Assembly (NCBI GenBank): GCA_964590105.1
Contig: CAZPYM010000003.1
Location: forward strand, 72,179-136,178
Origin: an uncultured Gammaproteobacteria bacterium
GTDB taxonomy: Bacteria; Patescibacteriota; Patescibacteriia; UBA11705; JABHMO01
Direction: 5' to 3'
Length of the DNA stretch: 64,000 bases
The translations under genes and the position numbers were made by a program. The notes under the pieces were generated by a model. The model was not told the DNA's origin. It ran no database searches and worked only from the letters and a program-made list of their open reading frames with translations. Shown one piece after another: positions 24,506 to 61,645 of the stretch (positions within the stretch are counted from its first letter, which is position 1; each line of letters opens with the position of its first letter).

Positions 24506-24529
24506 CTTTGTTGTGACAGAGTTATTTTT

Positions 24530-25708
24530 CTATCTCTTTTCTTTTGCCTTGGCCCTGACCGCCTGGCACCAGGGCAAGCCCCAGACGTACCAGGGGCAAG
24601 CGTTTTCCGGCTTGGACGCGCACATGCCCATCTGACAGAGCGCGGCGCGAGCCGGTTCAAAGGTCTCCGGACAAACCGCCACCTTGATCAGCTCGCAGAT
24701 ATCCGCGAGCGGGATCATGGTCGGCGTGGTGGCGGGAGCAGTGATGCTCCCGTTCAGCAGGAACTGGCCTTCGTGATGGAAATACCACACACCGGAGGGG
24801 CCCATGCCTTCGTCCGACAGTTCCCGCCAGTTGTTTACGATGACCTTGCCGCGAACCTTCTGCTCTTCATAGCGCAAGACTCGCGCCAGGGTGAAAAGCT
24901 TCAGGTTGGCACGGCGGGCCGTGTGAATGGTCACATGACCGGCCGGTCGTCTCTGGACAACGATGTCAGCGTTGGCGCCGTCCTTGAAGCGGCCGGCGCG
25001 GCCGATTTCGTTGTTGTCCGATTCGATGGCCAGGAGAACAAGCGTGCGCTCGTTCGGGCCCTTGATCTTGCTGATCTGGCCCTTTTCTTTGATTTCCTCG
25101 AGCGCGGCCTTGAAGGCCTCGTCCTGCGCCTTTTCCGCGTCAGCGGTATAGGCCAGCCAGTTCGCCGCGGAAATCTCAGGCTTGTTCGGATTCTGCTCGA
25201 CGAGTAGTTTGCCGAAATAGTCCTTGCCGAACTCCTTGGTTTTCTTCTCCGCCCGAATCTTGGCGCGGATGGCCACAAGGGCCCAGTCGATGATCTCGGC
25301 GGTCTGTTCCGAGAAAACCCGGTGCAGCATGTTCACGTACGTGGCCAGCCCACCAGGCTGATCGCGTCCGTGGAGGTCATTGTCCAGGACATAGGACAGA
25401 ACCTCCTTCAGTTCCTCGTTGTCCCGGACGCCGAGTGCCCTCGCCACCAGTGTGGCCGCGCATTCGTCCTCTTTCTTCGCCTCCCCGTTGGCGGGATGCT
25501 CATCAAACTCGCCACCCAGCACTCCGACGTGGATGATGCCGTGTGGACAGTGCGTTTTTAGAAACTCCTTGGTGCCGTACAGCTCAAGGAGGGAGATTGC
25601 CGCGATTTCCTCCACGTGGAGGGCGGCGTGAGTGAGAAACCAGATCTTCCGGCCTGCGACCGTGATCTGGAATCGGATGAAATTCCCTTGTCTTTCTATT
25701 GTTTTCAA
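24530..25708 (-). CDS. hypothetical protein (392 aa) on a GC-rich island. Apparent TTG start. His-rich N-terminal region and a Cys-cluster C-terminus.
   Basis: Long ORF with strong GC3 bias in about 57% GC DNA, a G-rich RBS and a terminator. Motifs THAALHVEE, HCPHGIIHVGVLGGEFDEH and 5 Cys in the last 45 aa. I cannot assign a family. Confidence 0.55.
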   Translation of the reverse strand: MKTIERQGNFIRFQITVAGRKIWFLTHAALHVEEIAAISLLELYGTKEFLKTHCPHGIIHVGVLGGEFDEHPANGEAKKEDECAATLVARALGVRDNEELKEVLSYVLDNDLHGRDQPGGLATYVNMLHRVFSEQTAEIIDWALVAIRAKIRAEKKTKEFGKDYFGKLLVEQNPNKPEISAANWLAYTADAEKAQDEAFKAALEEIKEKGQISKIKGPNERTLVLLAIESDNNEIGRAGRFKDGANADIVVQRRPAGHVTIHTARRANLKLFTLARVLRYEEQKVRGKVIVNNWRELSDEGMGPSGVWYFHHEGQFLLNGSITAPATTPTMIPLADICELIKVAVCPETFEPARAALCQMGMCASKPENACPWYVWGLPWCQAVRAKAKEKR

Positions 25709-25935
25709 TTTTCCCCCCTATTTTGGTTGTCAATTTGCAAACTCTACGAAATCGTATTATAGCATATAAAAATTTAAATGTCAAGCTGTTTTAGCTATTT
25801 TTAGCTAAAATTGCTATTTATATTAAGTTCCAAAAAGACCATTGACAAGAATAAAAAAATTGGGTAAGCTTATTTGATATATTTGTTCATTTATTGAAAT
25901 TTCTAAACGTTGTTCGAGCTTTACAAGGAGGCGCA

Positions 25936-26808
25936 ATGGCAGGAAAAAGCAAAACCGGTTTTATCGAACGAGCTATGGCTAAAGTGGCCAAGCAGATTGA
26001 AAAATTGATTGAAGAAGAAGGAAAAATGCGGATGCGTTGGGTAAAGGGTTACCACCGCATGCAACGCGCGGCGCAGGGTTTGACAAAGATTACGAGACTG
26101 AAAACCAAGAGAGCTGAAAGTTTTGGGAAGATTGTCAATTCCTGGATGCAGGAATCAATAGGCATGACCAAGGCGCGTGACGCCAAGCGAGCGCAAAGGG
26201 AAGCCAAAGAAAAAGAGCTTCAGGAATTGAAGTTACAATTGGTTAAACTGCAGGCTGAAATCAACCGCGTGACCGGTGAAACCGATGAAATCGTGGACCA
26301 GGTTTTCAGTCTGAATGACGCAGTGGTGGCGGCGCTCGAGTCGCGGCAGGCATATCTCAGCAATCATGTGTTTCATCGTTTGATCGGCGACAATGGGGAG
26401 ATGCGCAGTCAGATCACGTTTGACAGCAAGGACGGTTTGCGCCGGGTGGTGGTTATGGTGAATCATATAACCAAGGTTCAGACCGACTTGGCTAACGCGG
26501 CCATGCTCGAGATTGATAAGTTTTTCACCCGCTTTGGCGTTGAAACCGCAGAAGACAGGCTGGAACCGGAAGTGCAGGCGCTGTACAAGCTGACGCGCGA
26601 GATCTTGATTTCACGCCAGACATTCAAGGTCGGACGGGATTTGTATCGGTTCCTCGGAATTGAGATTGATGAAGGCATTTTCCCCGAATTGTACAAGGCT
26701 CAGATGCTCCTGCGGCGCAGTCTGCGCAGTGAGAAAACCAATTCATACATTCGCTTGTCCAAACGAGCAAACATGAATGACAAGTGGCAGGCATTGCCCC
26801 TGCACTAG
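25936..26808 (+). CDS. hypothetical coiled-coil protein (291 aa) on a GC-rich island, divergent from the previous gene
   Basis: AGGAGG RBS 7 nt upstream of ATG 25936. N-terminal K/R/E coiled coil, then a C-terminal globular part. High GC3. Followed by a strong terminator. Confidence 0.55.
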   Translation: MAGKSKTGFIERAMAKVAKQIEKLIEEEGKMRMRWVKGYHRMQRAAQGLTKITRLKTKRAESFGKIVNSWMQESIGMTKARDAKRAQREAKEKELQELKLQLVKLQAEINRVTGETDEIVDQVFSLNDAVVAALESRQAYLSNHVFHRLIGDNGEMRSQITFDSKDGLRRVVVMVNHITKVQTDLANAAMLEIDKFFTRFGVETAEDRLEPEVQALYKLTREILISRQTFKVGRDLYRFLGIEIDEGIFPELYKAQMLLRRSLRSEKTNSYIRLSKRANMNDKWQALPLH

Positions 26809-26913: not shown

Positions 26914-26989
26914 GCTCGTATAGCTCAGTGGTTAGAGCACCGCCCTTATAAGGCGGGGGTCGATGGTTCAAATCCATCTACGAGCACCA
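26914..26989 (+). tRNA. tRNA-Ile with anticodon UAU (as read from the loop CTTATAA)
   Basis: 76 nt cloverleaf: acceptor GCTCGTA/TACGAGC, D arm GCTC-AGTGGTTA-GAGC, anticodon stem CCGCC/GGCGG, T arm GATGG-TTCAAAT-CCATC, encoded CCA. The scaffold closely resembles bacterial tRNA-Ile(GAU) but has TAT in the anticodon. Confidence 0.75.
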
Positions 26990-49027: not shown

Positions 49028-49173
49028 AGGAAAAGCACAAATCACAAAATCCAAAACTCGAAGGAAATTCCAAATCTAAAATTCACAAATCATTTTGGAA
49101 TTTTGAATTTTGCGCTTTGAATTTAAGTCTTCAGTACGCGGTAATCGCGTTAAACATTAATCTTCCATACACT

Positions 49174-49965
49174 ATGGAGTTGAGCATAATAATTTTAAAT
49201 TACAAAATGAAGGGCTTGGTTAAAAATTGCGTCAAGACTATTTTTGAGTCTGAATTTGATCAGCCCTATGAAATAATTGTTGTGGATAATAATTCCGGCG
49301 ATGGAGTTGAAGCTATGCTTCAGGAGAGATTTCCACAAGTTAAATTTATCCAAACCGGCGCAAACCTGGGAATGGGCGCGGGAAACAACGCCGGAATTAA
49401 TGCAGCGCTGGGAAAATATGTTTTAATAATGAATCCTGATATTTTTGTGTCCAGGGATTCTTTGCAAAAACTTTATGATTATATTAGCCAGCGGTCTGAT
49501 GTTGGTCTGGTGGCGCCGCGCTTGTTAAATCCCGACAAAACCTTGCAATACACGTGCTATCGCTGGCATAAATTTTTAACGCCGGCTTTGCGACGTACTT
49601 TTTTTGGTAAAATTAAATGGGCGCAGAAAGAGTTGGATCGTTTTTTAATGCGGGACTGGGATCATGCATCAACTCGTGAAGTAGATTGGATCCAGGGCTC
49701 GTGCCTGCTCATTCCTAAAAAAGTGATTGATGAAGCCGGAGCTTTTGACGATCGTTTTTTTATGTATTTTGAGGATACTGATCTTTGTCGGCGAATTCGA
49801 AAAGCCGGATACAAAAATGTTTATTTGGCAGAGGCTGAAGTTGTTCATCTGCACCGCCGCCAGTCAGCTGATCAGAGCGGCCTGAAGTCTTTGTTCAGCA
49901 AACTGACCAGGATTCATATTGCCAGCTGGATGAAGTATATGTTGAAGTGGAAGGGGGAAAGTTAA
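49174..49965 (+). CDS. family 2 glycosyltransferase
   Basis: MELSIIILNYKMKGLVKNC...IIVVDNNSGDG... Confidence 0.8.
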   Translation: MELSIIILNYKMKGLVKNCVKTIFESEFDQPYEIIVVDNNSGDGVEAMLQERFPQVKFIQTGANLGMGAGNNAGINAALGKYVLIMNPDIFVSRDSLQKLYDYISQRSDVGLVAPRLLNPDKTLQYTCYRWHKFLTPALRRTFFGKIKWAQKELDRFLMRDWDHASTREVDWIQGSCLLIPKKVIDEAGAFDDRFFMYFEDTDLCRRIRKAGYKNVYLAEAEVVHLHRRQSADQSGLKSLFSKLTRIHIASWMKYMLKWKGES

Positions 49966-50046
49966 AAGTTAAAAGGTAAAAGGGGAAAAGGGAAAAGGTA
50001 AAAGGTAAAAGGGGAAAAGGGAAAAGGGAAAGGGGAAAAGGGAAAA
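49948..50046. repeat. tandem heptamer minisatellite (GGKAAAA)x~14 with G3-4 tracts
   Basis: gttaaaa gttaaaa ggtaaaa ggggaaaa gggaaaa ggtaaaa ggtaaaa ggggaaaa gggaaaa gggaaa ggggaaaa gggaaaa gggaaaa. It begins at the stop of the GT2 gene and ends before a terminator hairpin. Confidence 0.9.
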
Positions 50047-50058
50047 GGGAAAAGTAAG

Positions 50059-50082: not shown

Positions 50083-50123
50083 TTGCTCGATGTTGTAAAA
50101 TTAGCTAAAAGCAGTTGCCTAAC

Positions 50124-50152
50124 TTGACAAATATGTAAATCTGTGCTATACT
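50124..50152 (+). promoter_or_regulatory. consensus sigma70 promoter (TTGACA-17-TGcTATACT) for the GC-rich membrane-protein gene
   Basis: Perfect -35, 17-nt spacer, extended -10. About 50 nt upstream of ATG 50206. Confidence 0.65.
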
Positions 50153-50205
50153 AAAACGTAGTTGATCTTTGTTAGACGTGTCCTTAACCTTAGAAGAGGT
50201 GTCGC

Positions 50206-50682
50206 ATGAAAAAGGAAATGCTGTGGTTTTACGGCTCGTTGGCAGTGGTTGCGCTGGTAGCACTCGTTGTCGGGCTGAATGCGGAGGTTGTTTTCACCGC
50301 GAAGCTCACCGGCCTGTTGGTCGCCTTGATTGTCGGCACGGTTGTGGGAGCCTGGCGCGACGGAACCAGCTATCGCGCTGCGAGTGAGGGGGATCCTCTG
50401 ATCGTCCCCAAGTTGTTCATGTTCGCAATGGCGGCCATTTCAATCCTTGTCGGTGCGTATCTCGTTGACTTGATCAACACCTACGGGGTGCGATTCTTTT
50501 CACAAGGGGTTTCAATCTGTTTTTCTGGAGTAATGGTGGTTTTCTTGCTTGCCACTGGGGCCAGCATCGGGATGTACTGGAATGACCGTCCCGCCGGTAC
50601 CACCGTCCGCACAGCCATCGCCACCTGCGCCATCTACCTCCTGCCGGCGATCATCCTCACGCCGATGGTGATTTACATCTAA
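50206..50682 (+). CDS. hypothetical membrane protein (158 aa, about 4 TM) encoded on a GC-rich (about 58%) islet
   Basis: High GC and GC3 unlike neighbouring genes. Own promoter and terminator (cgact-acac-agtcg + T-run at about 50727-50751). Confidence 0.55.
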   Translation: MKKEMLWFYGSLAVVALVALVVGLNAEVVFTAKLTGLLVALIVGTVVGAWRDGTSYRAASEGDPLIVPKLFMFAMAAISILVGAYLVDLINTYGVRFFSQGVSICFSGVMVVFLLATGASIGMYWNDRPAGTTVRTAIATCAIYLLPAIILTPMVIYI

Positions 50683-50837
50683 GTCGCCTGAAGCAAATTT
50701 TCACAACAACGTTTTGTGAAAGAACTCGACTACACAGTCGGGTTTTTTCTTTTAAATGAGCAATAGGCCTGCCCTGAATCTGACGGAGGAATGGTTCATG
50801 GCTCGTTTTTTATTTAAGAAATTGTTATAATGGTGAC

Positions 50838-52805
50838 ATGCACAGTAATAAACAAAATTTTATCCGGCCGGAAAGGCGGGATTACAAAAAGCACGCAATA
50901 ACCGTGGGCCAGATTTTGTTGATTCCAATTCGTTTACTGCCGTATTTAATTCTGCTGTGTTTAATCATGGCGATTTTGATCGGCGTATTTGTCGGTATTT
51001 CTTTGGCGCCATATTATGCCTCACTAAAAGCTGTTTATGCGCAGGGAATAGAAGGGCAAAATCATTTATTGGCCGCGGAAAAGTTTTTGGGAGCGCAAAA
51101 ATTTGATTTGACTGCGGCAGAACTGGAGAGCGCGGAGCAAAGTTTTGTCAATGCGCAAAAAGGTTTGAAGCTGGCCGGCCAGGCGGCGATTTTTCGGAGC
51201 GATCTCATAAAAAATCAGTTGGTTGTGGCTGAAGAAATTTTTTCAATCGGCGAAATTTTATCCCGGTCTTTAAAAAATATCACCGCTATTGGTCAGGAAA
51301 TTCAGGCGGCATTAAAAGCAGACAATATTGTCTGGCTGGATATTACTCCGGAGAAAAAAGGCGAAATTTTGAAAATTCTGAATGATTCTGTCGGCGACCT
51401 GCAAAAAGTTCAGCAGGATTTTGCCTTAGCCAATGGAAAACTTCTTGATATCAATAGCCGCCAGCCGCTTTTCATTTTCAATAAAGCGGTAACTCCCCTG
51501 CAAACAAAGATTCCCAAGCTGCAGAAAACTTTTGACGGCCTGGTCACAGTCGCCAAGCTTTTGCCGGCTTTTTCCGGATATCCCGAAGCCAAAACTTATT
51601 TATTTATTTTGGAAAATAATCGCGAGATGCGTCCGGCCGGCGGATTTATCGGTACCTATGGCATACTGAAAATAAAAAATGCTGAAATGGAACAATTTTT
51701 TACTGACAATTCATACAATTTTGATTCTCCGGTTCACGACACTTTTCAGATCCCTTCACCGGAGCCGATGAAAAAATATATGAATCAGCCTCATTGGTAT
51801 TTTCGCGATTCTAATTGGTGGCCGGATTTTCCAACTTCAGCAGAAAAAGTGGAGTGGTTTTATCACAATCAGGGCGGCGCGGAAAATCTGGATGGTATTA
51901 TTGCTATCACGCCAAACGTGATCGAAGAACTGCTCGGCGTGCTGGGTGAATTTCAGGTGAGCGATTTGAAATTTAATAAAGAAAATTTTTGGGAGCAATT
52001 GCAGTATCAGGTTGAATACGGTTATTACAAGCAGGGGATTGAGGCGAAAGACAGAAAAGACATTATCAGCGATCTGGGCCAGCAGATGATTGCCAGGTTA
52101 TATTTATTGCCAATGAATAAGTGGCCGATCCTTATTGACGCCATTTCAGAGCAAGTAAAGGAAAAGCAGTTTTTATTATATTTTAATGATCCGGAAATGC
52201 AGGCTATGGCAATTAAAAATGGCTGGGCCGGCGAGGTAAAAGATTTTTCCGGCGATTATATAATGCTCGTGGACGCGAATCTGGCGGCGCTGAAAACCGA
52301 TTCGGTTATGAACAGAACAATGATGTACCGGCTGGATCAGAACGAAGATGGCGAATTGTTTGCCTCAACCAGTGTTAATTATCAGAACATGGGAACTTTT
52401 TCCTGGAAAACCACTCGATATCGAACTTACACCCGATTGTATGTGCCGGCAGGAAGCGAACTTATCTCCGTGAAAGCGGGTAATACAGAGATTGACCTGG
52501 AGAAAGACGTTGACATAACCAATGAATTTGGAAAAACCGCTTTTGGTTTATTTTTCGAGGTAGAGCCGCAAACTTCCAAAGTCATAACCTGGAAATATAA
52601 ATTGCCGGCTCGAATTTTGCCGGGCAATGAATATGCTGTCATGGTGCAAAAACAGCCGGGCATTCCTCAAATGAATCTTCAGCTTGATTTAAACTTCCAG
52701 AAAAAAATAAAAAGCAATCAGGTCGGACTGCACGCCAGCAAAAACAATCTTAAACACGTGGAAGTGATGCGTCAGGATCAGGTTTATACGGTTTGGTTGG
52801 AGTAG
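50838..52805 (+). CDS. DUF4012-domain membrane-anchored protein
   Basis: N-terminal TM helix. LENNREMRPAGGFIGTYG matches the DUF4012 signature. 655 aa. Confidence 0.6.
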   Translation: MHSNKQNFIRPERRDYKKHAITVGQILLIPIRLLPYLILLCLIMAILIGVFVGISLAPYYASLKAVYAQGIEGQNHLLAAEKFLGAQKFDLTAAELESAEQSFVNAQKGLKLAGQAAIFRSDLIKNQLVVAEEIFSIGEILSRSLKNITAIGQEIQAALKADNIVWLDITPEKKGEILKILNDSVGDLQKVQQDFALANGKLLDINSRQPLFIFNKAVTPLQTKIPKLQKTFDGLVTVAKLLPAFSGYPEAKTYLFILENNREMRPAGGFIGTYGILKIKNAEMEQFFTDNSYNFDSPVHDTFQIPSPEPMKKYMNQPHWYFRDSNWWPDFPTSAEKVEWFYHNQGGAENLDGIIAITPNVIEELLGVLGEFQVSDLKFNKENFWEQLQYQVEYGYYKQGIEAKDRKDIISDLGQQMIARLYLLPMNKWPILIDAISEQVKEKQFLLYFNDPEMQAMAIKNGWAGEVKDFSGDYIMLVDANLAALKTDSVMNRTMMYRLDQNEDGELFASTSVNYQNMGTFSWKTTRYRTYTRLYVPAGSELISVKAGNTEIDLEKDVDITNEFGKTAFGLFFEVEPQTSKVITWKYKLPARILPGNEYAVMVQKQPGIPQMNLQLDLNFQKKIKSNQVGLHASKNNLKHVEVMRQDQVYTVWLE

Positions 52806-58021: not shown

Positions 58022-58049
58022 TTGACGAAAATTTTTCAAGTGCTATAAT
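58022..58049 (+). promoter_or_regulatory. promoter (TTGACG-16-TGcTATAAT) driving a short non-coding transcript
   Basis: Strong -35 and an extended -10. No ORF follows before a terminator at 58213-58240. Confidence 0.55.
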
Positions 58050-58055
58050 AAAAAT

Positions 58056-58238
58056 AATCACAAGCGATTGGCCTGGCTACCAACCGGGCACCACAAGGTT
58101 TTGCAATAAAAAGCTAACTAAGTTTGTGAGAACAATATAAGAAATTAAGAGCTTTGGCGTTTGTTTGTCCGAAGAACTTGGGTGGAACCCCCTGGCGTAT
58201 GCCTGGGCCCAAGACTAAGTAAAATTAGTCTTTTTTAT
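58056..58238 (+). ncRNA. putative small structured RNA (about 180 nt; 6S-like long hairpin?) between promoter and terminator upstream of dtd
   Basis: Bounded by the promoter at 58022-58049 and by terminator agactaa-gtaaaa-ttagtct plus a T-run (58213-58240). The 5' segment (ttggcctggctaccaaccgggcaccacaagg) is largely complementary to the 3' segment (cttgggtggaaccccctggcgtatgcctgggcccaag), predicting a long closing helix around an AT-rich interior. There is no coding potential. Confidence 0.4.
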
Positions 58239-58242
58239 TTGT

Positions 58243-58704
58243 ATGAAGGTTTTATTACAAAGAGTAAATTTAGCTTCCGTTGAAGTTGACAATAAAGTTG
58301 TCGGAAAAATCGGCAAAGGGCTTTTGGCTTTTTTGGGCGTTGGCAAAGAGGATTCTGAAGTGGAAGTAACTACTTTGGTCGAAAAGTTAATAAACTTGCG
58401 GATTTTTCCAGTTGAAGACCCTTCGACAAGCTCAGGGCAGGGAAAACATTTTGACAAATCATTATTGGAAGTTGGCGGCGAGGTTTTGGTGGTTTCCCAG
58501 TTTACTCTTTATGCTAATTGCGAAAAAGGCAGGCGGCCTGATTTTTTTGACTCTGCCGATCCTAAAAAAGCAGAAGATTTGTACAATAAATTCATTGATA
58601 AATTAAAATCTAAAAACATTAAAACTGAAGCAGGAAAATTTGGCGCGTATATGCAAGTCAATTTAGAAAATGACGGGCCGTGTACTTTCTGGCTGGAGAG
58701 ATAA
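58243..58704 (+). CDS. dtd: D-aminoacyl-tRNA deacylase
   Basis: MKVLLQRVNLASVEVDNKVVGKIGKGLLAFLGV...SQFTLYAN...GRRPDF...NDGPCTFWLE. Confidence 0.8.
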   Translation: MKVLLQRVNLASVEVDNKVVGKIGKGLLAFLGVGKEDSEVEVTTLVEKLINLRIFPVEDPSTSSGQGKHFDKSLLEVGGEVLVVSQFTLYANCEKGRRPDFFDSADPKKAEDLYNKFIDKLKSKNIKTEAGKFGAYMQVNLENDGPCTFWLER

Positions 58705-60830: not shown

Positions 60831-60860
60831 GACCCCGTCTCTGGCGAGAGACTGGGGTCT
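60831..60860. terminator. bidirectional terminator between thrS and the convergent minus-strand gene
   Basis: gaccccgtctc-tggcgag-agactggggtc with flanking A/T runs. Confidence 0.65.
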
Positions 60861-60864
60861 TGTG

Positions 60865-61515
60865 TTAGTTCGTGTCGGCCAACGCCGACGTCTTGTCGAA
60901 GTGCCGGCGGAACATCCTGAGGATGATGAAGAAGAAGACTTCTCCCTTGAATAGTACGAAGGGGACATCCTCTTCCGGCACTTCTTTTTTGAACTCGGGC
61001 CGCAGAAAAAAGACCTTTTGGGGCCGTTCGTTTCTCGGCAGAGTGAATTGCGCGTGCGCGCTTTCCAGGTCAAAGCCCTGAATCAGGCTCTGGCCACTCA
61101 CGGCGGCTCGACTCCACAGGGCCTGTTCTTCGTCGGCAATGTCATACTTGGTCGGCTGATGAGACTCTTTGAACTCAGCTCTCACCGACTTGATGATTTC
61201 ATATTCAAGATCAGGGAACATGTCCATGAGCGGCTGCAACGCCCGGTAAAGCCGGTTGTGCTCGCGGGGCGAAACCAGTTTTTCACGGAGCAGCATGTCA
61301 ATATAGGTGTCGAGAAGGTGTTCTTTTCGCACGGGCTGTCCACCTCCTTTTGGCTTTTCAATTTGCTTCTTCTCAGGCCGGCAAAACTGCAGGAGCTTGC
61401 CGGGCGCTTGTTTTTCTCTGTTCTCTCCAGTAATACCCGCTTCGTGGTTCTGGCTGAAAGAGATAAAGACAACGGACTGGTCAGTCCGAGCTTGTTTGTT
61501 CATCGTAACCTCCAA
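60865..61515 (-). CDS. hypothetical protein (216 aa) on a GC-rich (about 56%) islet
   Basis: Strong RBS (ttGGAGGTtacgATG) on the minus strand, high GC3, terminator downstream. No family recognised. The overlapping + strand ORFs are judged spurious. Confidence 0.55.
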   Translation of the reverse strand: MEVTMNKQARTDQSVVFISFSQNHEAGITGENREKQAPGKLLQFCRPEKKQIEKPKGGGQPVRKEHLLDTYIDMLLREKLVSPREHNRLYRALQPLMDMFPDLEYEIIKSVRAEFKESHQPTKYDIADEEQALWSRAAVSGQSLIQGFDLESAHAQFTLPRNERPQKVFFLRPEFKKEVPEEDVPFVLFKGEVFFFIILRMFRRHFDKTSALADTN

Positions 61516-61645
61516 TTGTCAGAGAGTAAACCCTAACAAGGTATTATTGCATTTTTTTACTGAGTTGTCAAGGCCTTAAAAAATTTATAAATTTAGGGTA
61601 TAATGGGGACAGTTAACAAATAAAGCTATAATCAGAAAATATTGT

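Follow-up and report, generated by a model that had tools for sequence, protein, structure and literature searches.

A self-contained GC-rich membrane-protein gene unit in a variable slot of an envelope-glycan locus from a Patescibacteria genome

Genomic islets and horizontally acquired ORFans (orphan open reading frames, ORFs) are recognised by their atypical composition within the amelioration framework of Lawrence and Ochman; under unopposed native mutation pressure, the GC content of third codon positions (GC3) should converge on the background once synonymous sites turn over. In glycan-modification modules, GT2 glycosyltransferases are accompanied by small membrane proteins with several helices, those of the GtrA type among them. 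In phage HK97 the membrane protein gp15 mediates superinfection exclusion. The phage moron, as a concept and in its definition, has been described previously (PMC3594210). Here we describe a gene unit that resembles these systems in part and lies in a 64,000-nucleotide stretch of bacterial DNA (contig CAZPYM010000003.1 of assembly GCA_964590105.1, positions 72,179 to 136,178; hereafter the window, with coordinates counted from its first letter). Positions 50092-50756 of the window are a 665-bp self-contained accessory unit consisting of a promoter, a single gene and a terminator. With a probability of about 0.6, we read it as a moron-like autonomous accessory cassette in a hypervariable slot of the envelope-glycan locus of a Falkowbacteria-like member of the Candidate Phyla Radiation (CPR), in which a GC-rich codon regime has been maintained. 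Related CPR lineages would gain or lose the cassette as a whole, and its codon regime would be a property kept up by selection or by GC-biased gene conversion, not the fading mark of an import; the same regime would be found in the further stand-alone genes of this genome that have strong promoters. The parts of the unit are as follows.

50092-50123, + strand: conserved upstream promoter element including TTAGCTAAAA (50101-50110); homology with the related locus L005 begins here
50124-50152, + strand: sigma-70-type promoter with −35 TTGACA (50124-50129), 17-bp spacer, extended −10 TGc and −10 TATACT (50147-50152)
50153-50205, + strand: inferred 5' untranslated region (UTR), in which lie the conserved motif AGTTGATCTTTGWTAG and, at 50196-50201, the Shine-Dalgarno sequence GAGGTG
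50206-50682, + strand: coding sequence with ATG start for a five-helix integral membrane protein of 158 amino acids (aa), from a three-member family without annotation
50700-50720, + strand: conserved inverted repeat TTCACAA-N7-TTGTGAA with the CACAACAA motif inside; the L005 copy is near-identical, with one 1-nt indel
50718-50749, + strand: intrinsic terminator with A-tract, GC stem (14 bp), 4-nt loop and U-tract

An initial annotation of the window, made from the sequence by itself, had placed a 158-aa gene here between a GT2 and a DUF4012 gene and had given it a promoter, TTGACA-17-TGcTATACT, and a hairpin terminator of its own. All of these were recovered: the ORF was found and both neighbours were confirmed by Pfam, the promoter agreed with the consensus at 11 of 12 positions in addition to its extended −10 TG and was kept in L005, and the terminator, too, kept in L005, had a 14-bp stem and then a U-tract. 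In the sequence the unit comprises a near-consensus sigma-70 promoter with a conserved upstream element, a leader of ~47 nt with a good Shine-Dalgarno sequence, a 158-codon ORF and a strong hairpin terminator; judged from consensus matches, it would be transcribed strongly and independently of its neighbours. The upstream element is possibly an UP element or a site bound by a regulator. The 5' UTR showed no stable structure in folding (z=0.0); the 74-nt 3' region (50683-50756), which has the terminator inside, folded at −18.9 kcal/mol (z=−2.8). The L005 counterpart of the inverted repeat folds as an 8-bp hairpin, and the CACAACAA motif is also present after the stop codon of a second GC-rich gene of the window, islet 1 (see below).

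Homology between the window and L005 spanned positions 50092 to ~50756, with 75% identity over the 114-nt 5' module, 59% over the coding sequence and 86% over the 74-nt 3' module. In a codon alignment of the window gene with its L005 homologue (P0002), codon positions 1, 2 and 3 differed at 35%, 27% and 61%, respectively; between these two genes the nonsynonymous divergence (dN) was 0.39 and the synonymous divergence (dS) ~3.9, which is saturated, giving a dN/dS of ~0.1. The reading frame stayed intact across a net length difference of 24 nt (8 codons), the N-terminus MKKEM is common to all homologues, and the C-terminus PMVIYI is kept between the window protein and P0002 too. To judge from this pattern of substitution, the ORF is evidently a real protein-coding gene under purifying selection. 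Since the non-coding modules were better conserved than the saturated synonymous sites, the regulatory modules appear to be under purifying selection as well.

The composition of the gene differed strongly from that of its surroundings. A GC content of about 58% had been given in the initial annotation; the ORF is indeed GC-rich relative to the window (41.5%), at the slightly lower figure of 55.8%, with 0.54, 0.43 and 0.70-0.71 at codon positions 1, 2 and 3. Its GC3 of 0.71 lay at z=+7.4 relative to 51 other long ORFs of the window (0.414±0.040) and well apart from that of the genes next to it (0.43-0.46). Native-like codon usage had been named beforehand as the result that would speak against an alien composition, and usage proved to be non-native: the log-likelihood of its synonymous codons, under a model trained on native genes, was at z=−5.1 relative to the 51 other ORFs, and its relative synonymous codon usage (RSCU) correlated with that of native genes at only r 0.03-0.15, as compared to 0.71-0.81 among native genes. 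Two regimes of RSCU could be told apart. In 100-bp windows the GC content rose from 0.35 to 0.54-0.68 at the start codon and returned to ~0.42 at the stop codon; the 5' and 3' flanks have 35-43% GC, and the step in composition essentially coincides with the start and stop codons.

In searches covering together about 15 billion proteins the family came out as new and very small, consisting of three members. When 5.8 billion cluster representatives were searched by word index, nothing but the gene itself was returned, and an exhaustive HMMER search over 1.84 billion cluster representatives returned two homologues only, P0002 (150 aa, 55% identical) and P0003 (a 67-aa fragment). Searches by tblastn of phage and plasmid collections, together with scans of viral contigs, gave no relative of the 158-aa protein or of the islet-1 protein. 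Both homologues were located on AT-rich contigs, and both of their units had the same promoter type as the window, with a consensus −35 and an extended −10; the upstream sequence TTAGCYAAAA preceded the promoters of the window cassette, islet 1, L005 and L010. The GC3 of the family was 0.71 in the window, 0.66 in L005 and 0.62 in L010, on native backgrounds of ~0.41 (window) and 0.31 (L005) and with AT-rich flanks.

The homologues of the DUF4012 protein marked the source organism as one of the Patescibacteria, that is CPR, and related proteins carried Falkowbacteria-type names. The genes near the cassette include GT2, DUF4012, dnaE, pyruvate kinase and PPDK, and relatives conserve the gene order amino-acid permease, GT2, GT2, GT2, slot, DUF4012, dnaE, in which the slot is hypervariable. 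The immediate surroundings in the window, including a G-tract heptamer minisatellite that had already been reported and was confirmed by Tandem Repeats Finder (TRF), are listed here.

49117-49965: GT2 gene upstream of the cassette (Pfam)
49958-50054, no strand: heptamer minisatellite (AAAGGTA/G-tract), period 7, 13.6 copies by TRF, just past the GT2 stop codon
50056-50077, + strand: hairpin terminator belonging to the GT2 gene upstream, with 9 pairs and then a T-run (terminator scan)
50838-52805: DUF4012 gene downstream of the cassette (Pfam)

The minisatellite is adjacent context and lies outside the conserved cassette, which starts ~15 nt past the U-tract of the GT2 terminator; the L005 cassette likewise begins directly after a terminator U-tract. 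In the closest relative, L006 (DUF4012 73% identical), the cassette was absent and a gap of 139 bp separated GT2 from DUF4012. The slot of L007 held a 136-aa gene and two small lipoprotein-like genes, and that of L005 held the L007 gene set plus a 150-aa homologue of the 158-aa protein. The GT2 proteins of L005 and L007 were both 93% identical, and the two loci differed by an indel of ~650 bp that extends from just past the U-tract of the preceding terminator to just past the cassette's own terminator; with these endpoints, the indel is exactly promoter, gene and terminator. In L008 and L009 the slot held a protein of ~850 aa with Vault_3 and MVP_shoulder domains followed by an NYN-domain protein. 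Thus four of the six related loci (L006, L007, L008 and L009) are without the cassette gene. Its exact position also differed, directly between GT2 and DUF4012 in the window and between a 65-aa gene and a lipoprotein gene in L005; flanking GT2 proteins were 72-74% identical between these two loci, whereas the 158-aa protein was 55% identical. The third family member, in L010, is cut at about codon 57 and closes a GC-rich block of three genes next to a murI fragment; this truncation looks like a deletion or rearrangement scar. We concluded from the empty site, the L005/L007 indel and the different context in L010 that this is an accessory unit gained, lost or moved as a block.

Several observations on these loci are added for completeness. 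Within the slot regions L008 2675-5900 and L009 2677-5878, the ~850-aa protein resembles major vault protein by Pfam. The L010 block (430-1290) encodes an 84-aa soluble protein, a 66-aa membrane protein and the truncated homologue behind a single TTAGCCAAAA/TTGACT/TGaTATAAT promoter. Related terminators of the form GA(A)CTCGAC-loop-GTCGGGT-T-run occur at L005 2738-2767, where one precedes the cassette, at L005 3383-3415, which is the cassette's own, and at L007 5360-5388; they could serve as recombination substrates for cassette loss or gain. No direct repeats were found at the ends of the cassette, the sole candidate being the likeness of the two L005 terminators, and a scan of contigs with DUF4012 gave only one locus, 30% identical and without useful synteny.

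The cassette gene is one of three GC-aberrant genes in the window, the features of which, together with a milder ORF, are as follows.

24530-25708, − strand: islet 1 gene, 392 aa, GC3 0.765, no Pfam match
25756-25784, − strand: TTGACA-N14-TGNTATAMT site, promoter of a GC-rich gene
25894-26808, + strand: milder aberrant ORF, GC3 0.589
50124-50152, + strand: TTGACA-N14-TGNTATAMT site, promoter of the cassette (above)
60865-61515, − strand: islet 3 gene, GC3 0.653
61543-61571, − strand: TTGACA-N14-TGNTATAMT site, promoter of a GC-rich gene

The three genes had initially been taken as orphans and as a sign of ongoing gene capture, possibly from a high-GC host. Their aberrant composition was confirmed (GC3 0.765, 0.71 and 0.653), but the 24.5-kb gene is no orphan, as its protein has 30 homologues. 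Its orthologues in L033 and L034 are in the same place, after secY-adk-map-ruvX-recO, with proteins 48-63% identical, and have GC3 values of 0.756 and 0.746 next to the 0.765 of the window gene, among neighbours of 0.32-0.62. The islet-1 gene is therefore vertically inherited and yet GC-rich, keeping synteny and a GC3 of ~0.75 in three genomes, and with it the argument from three orphans to ongoing capture falls. The islet 1 unit (24530-25784, − strand) has a perfect promoter (12 of 12 positions and TG), with a TTTTAGCTAAAA palindrome upstream. Islet 3 (60835-61571, − strand) has an ATG at 61503 for ~212 aa, a TTGACA-17-TGcAATAAT promoter and a GC-hairpin terminator; the gene gave no Pfam or PADLOC match, and a long ORF antisense to it (61018-61536, + strand) is probably a by-product of high GC. 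A further observation from this part of the window is a tRNA-Ile with anticodon UAU at 26914-26989; decoding of AUA by a UAU tRNA is uncommon in bacteria, most of which use a lysidine-modified CAU tRNA.

The promoters linked these genes to one another. Allowing at most one mismatch, TTGACA-N14-TGNTATAMT occurred at three sites in 64 kb, as compared to 0.04 expected by chance, each of which serves as promoter to one of the three GC-rich genes. When sites were graded by score, four reached 11/12 or more plus TG, and three of these stood before the same genes; for four promoters placed at random among ~56 genes, we calculated the chance of covering all three at ~1.4e-4. Promoters of this type also precede the islet-1 orthologues and the L005 and L010 units. 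Two of the three islets of the window have the sequence CACAAC(A) between stop codon and terminator (50702-50709 and, on the − strand, 24508-24515), and none of 50 native genes does; it also occurs at L005 3361-3368 and in L035 and L091. As a marker of a gene class it was not established in the metagenomes, where it occurred in 3 of 16 as compared to 1 of 35 cases (p=0.086).

A metagenome scan with TTAGCYAAAA-N12-16-TTGACA-N14-TGNTATA gave at least 120 sites and 87 distinct promoters. The mean GC of the 300 nt downstream exceeded that of the rest of the contig by 0.021, and that upstream fell 0.003 below it (Wilcoxon p=0.018); an excess of at least +0.10 was found downstream in 13 of the 87, compared to 4 upstream. 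Among 54 ORFs, GC3 was at least 0.2 above background in 18 and at least 0.2 below in 3. The full anatomy of stereotyped promoter, GC-rich ORF and GC-hairpin terminator was seen most clearly in L035, L091, L062, L074, L087 and L089. Given crude ORF calling, a majority of matches without contrast and a pattern that also catches unrelated phage promoters, the link between this promoter type and GC-rich ORFs is suggestive, not conclusive. A looser pattern matched, in viral contigs, mostly one unrelated podovirus family, in which the promoter stands before the terminase region, and we regard this as coincidental; ARAGORN and Rfam found no RNA genes downstream of the promoters that lacked a called ORF. 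L035 and L091 are on one 27.8-kb contig (Ga0210057_1002262, 33-35% GC), where two near-identical promoters, TTAGCTAAAATTA..GCTTGACAAAAGGGTTAAAATGTGCTATACT, precede unrelated GC-rich ORFs with GC3 of 0.68 and 0.75 on a background of ~0.2, each with a GC-hairpin terminator. We tentatively propose, as a possibility about which we remain rather doubtful, that there may be a CPR class of stand-alone genes having a stereotyped promoter (TTAGCYAAAA, ~13-15 nt, TTGACA, 17 nt, TGnTATAMT), a strong terminator and a GC3 of ~0.65-0.77, in genomes with a native GC3 of 0.2-0.45, that is actively kept up over long divergence by selection or by GC-biased gene conversion at accessory loci prone to recombination, and that the 158-aa cassette would be a mobile member of it rather than an import from a host.

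The protein has hydrophobic helices at ~2-24, 30-58, 66-97, 101-127 and 131-157 by the Kyte-Doolittle scale, in agreement with the secondary structure from AlphaFold2, and so has five hydrophobic helices instead of the four transmembrane helices first assigned. The product would sit in the cytoplasmic membrane with its N-terminus inside and its C-terminus outside; we infer the N-inside topology because of the Lys-Lys in the N-terminal MKKE and the conserved positively charged loops at 50-69 and 124-135 (YWxDRPxxxTVRTA). Pfam gave only sub-threshold matches, to TgpA_N (16 bits, cut-off 30), Ycf4 and DUF6223, and PHROGs gave no significant match to the 158-aa protein at E<=1. Three candidate identities gained no support. 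A GtrA-like flippase (PF04138) was absent from the Pfam matches at a reporting threshold of E=10, although the speed filters of HMMER discard most matches above E about 0.1; a known anti-phage defence protein was not matched in PADLOC at E<=0.1; and a holin does not fit the hydrophobic C-terminus (…LTPMVIYI), the neighbours, which include no lysin, or the PHROGs result, which included no lysis family. It is conceivable, though doubtful, that the protein serves as a strain-specific envelope factor of an exclusion, immunity or surface-modifying type. We make this guess because the slot is part of an envelope-glycan locus, because its contents vary widely, and because there is precedent in the membrane proteins encoded by morons (PMC3594210).

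The islet could be an assembly chimera, CPR DNA joined to that of a higher-GC organism, a concern raised in the initial annotation and favoured by the sharp compositional change and nothing else. It did not materialise: both junctions recurred in contigs from four other samples, at 100% identity over 4-12 kb in ENA ERZ27248920, ENA ERZ27248895 and Logan SRR8437217, and in a JGI contig (3300028168; L003) that is identical to the window except for having 21 bp (three minisatellite units) fewer in its minisatellite region, 1130-1240. A distinct repeat allele in an otherwise identical contig indicates separate populations and assemblies, not one propagated error. Together with the diverged homologue that has homologous AT-rich flanks in the same neighbourhood of another genome (L005), this leaves a chimera, as far as public assemblies show, virtually no chance. 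That the GC-rich segment is a structured non-coding RNA, with the ORF a by-product of high GC, is very improbable. GC islands in AT-rich genomes often are structured RNAs, a strong promoter and a terminator are present here, and high GC lowers the number of stop codons in all frames, as the long antisense ORF at islet 3 illustrates. In contrast, the third-position bias, the low dN/dS, the conserved frame and termini, and a Shine-Dalgarno sequence at the correct distance from the ATG are those of a gene. An Rfam scan gave no match for the segment, and the predicted transcript showed no excess of folding over shuffled controls (z=−0.10). We rejected the structured-RNA explanation on this coding signature, the Rfam result and the fold score taken together.

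The remaining alternatives concern origin, which had first been read from composition as foreign. The cassette is compositionally alien and accessory, and is gained or lost as a whole, in keeping with that view; it is neither demonstrably host-derived nor recent. Recent capture from a donor of high GC, perhaps the episymbiont's own host, with the donor composition as yet unameliorated, would suit the strongly non-native GC3 and codon usage, the patchy presence among relatives and the recent L005/L007 indel. Against it, no high-GC organism among the ~15 billion proteins has a homologue, those that exist being on AT-rich contigs; the rise in GC ends at the start and stop codons, and the 35-43% GC modules around the gene are homologous between the window and L005, so that AT-rich modules belonged to the cassette before these copies split, which is hard to reconcile with a high-GC donor. 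The GC3 is still 0.66-0.71 in both copies (0.62-0.71 across the family) at a saturated dS, the opposite of a decaying import, and islet 1 has the same composition with conserved synteny in three genomes. We consider such a capture improbable. The unit might instead be an old resident of the common ancestor, non-mobile, lost several times, and rich in GC through gene-specific selection. The neighbourhood downstream of GT2 genes is the same in the window and L005, the regulatory flanks are conserved, identity of 55% next to 72-74% for the GT2 proteins is plausible for a fast-evolving membrane protein, and islet 1 shows that GC-rich genes are inherited vertically here. The exact position nevertheless differs between the window and L005, the third copy is in an unrelated three-gene block by murI, and four of the six related loci lack the gene, among them L006, the nearest, and L007, related at 93%; we hold continuous residence to be unlikely.

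Some results weigh against the moron-like cassette with maintained GC that we favour. Since the family has just three members, vertical descent followed by several losses is inseparable from horizontal exchange, and the unit is flanked by neither phage genes nor an integrase, a tRNA attachment site or a target-site duplication. Its promoter strength and expression are judged from consensus matches. The fourth high-scoring promoter, at 58022 (TTGACG-16-TATAAT; 58022-58704, + strand), precedes a 153-aa gene with a native GC3 of 0.36, and the metagenome enrichment in GC behind this promoter type is modest (+0.021, p=0.018, strong in 13 of 87). Homology searches for function with Pfam (E up to 10), NCBIfam, PHROGs, PADLOC and PDB profiles gave nothing usable, and AlphaFold2 on the three-sequence alignment reached a pLDDT (predicted local distance difference test) score of 50.8, which is unreliable.

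As to what maintains the GC3, selection for mRNA structure was rejected (fold z=−0.10), and translational selection of the kind acting on ribosomal proteins is unlikely, given that the genes for these proteins in the window have an ordinary GC3; the candidates are GC-biased gene conversion at loci prone to recombination and other gene-specific selection. A maintained GC-rich codon regime coupled with stereotyped consensus promoters in a CPR genome is the unusual aspect of this locus. An atypical GC content is commonly taken to indicate recent horizontal transfer and, in CPR metagenome-assembled genomes, also to warn of contamination or chimerism; neither holds here. If the pattern is general, composition-based filters and detectors of horizontal gene transfer would mis-classify a set of genuine CPR genes, and the cause of a maintained GC3 would become tractable in tiny AT-biased genomes, with biased gene conversion at recombination hot spots and selection tied to very strong expression as candidates. 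The hypervariable envelope-glycan slot is where strain-level variation of the surface or of defence is likely to reside in these cell-attached bacteria.

Comparison with the described systems places the unit as follows. Like genomic islets and ORFans, it has atypical GC3 and codon usage, a patchy presence and a place in a hot-spot slot of a surface-polysaccharide locus; unlike them, it has no identifiable donor lineage, no mobility genes or direct repeats, and no sign of amelioration in three family members, and its AT-rich flanks of native type are part of the conserved unit. As with GtrA-type proteins, a polytopic membrane protein of small size is encoded beside GT2 genes in a locus for envelope glycans, whereas the unit has its own promoter and terminator instead of belonging to a GT2 operon, and the L010 copy is away from GT2. 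The likeness to phage morons, in the concept of Juhala and Hendrix and as exemplified by the HK97 gene 15 element, covers several traits: the unit adds just one gene, which brings a sigma-70 promoter and an intrinsic terminator of its own; it separates two genes that in a relative are direct neighbours (the 139-bp gap of L006; the ~650-bp L005/L007 indel); its GC content is unlike that of the genes around it (GC3 0.71 and 0.43-0.46, respectively); and its product is a small inner-membrane protein. The unit differs from morons in that it lies in a bacterial chromosome among GT2, DUF4012 and dnaE, not in a phage or prophage, and without viral relatives among those searched, and in that its atypical GC has been maintained across saturated divergence and is not a transient mark of transfer. 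Since the anatomy is in every respect that of a moron and the location is not that of a phage, we describe the unit as a moron-like chromosomal cassette and not as a moron.

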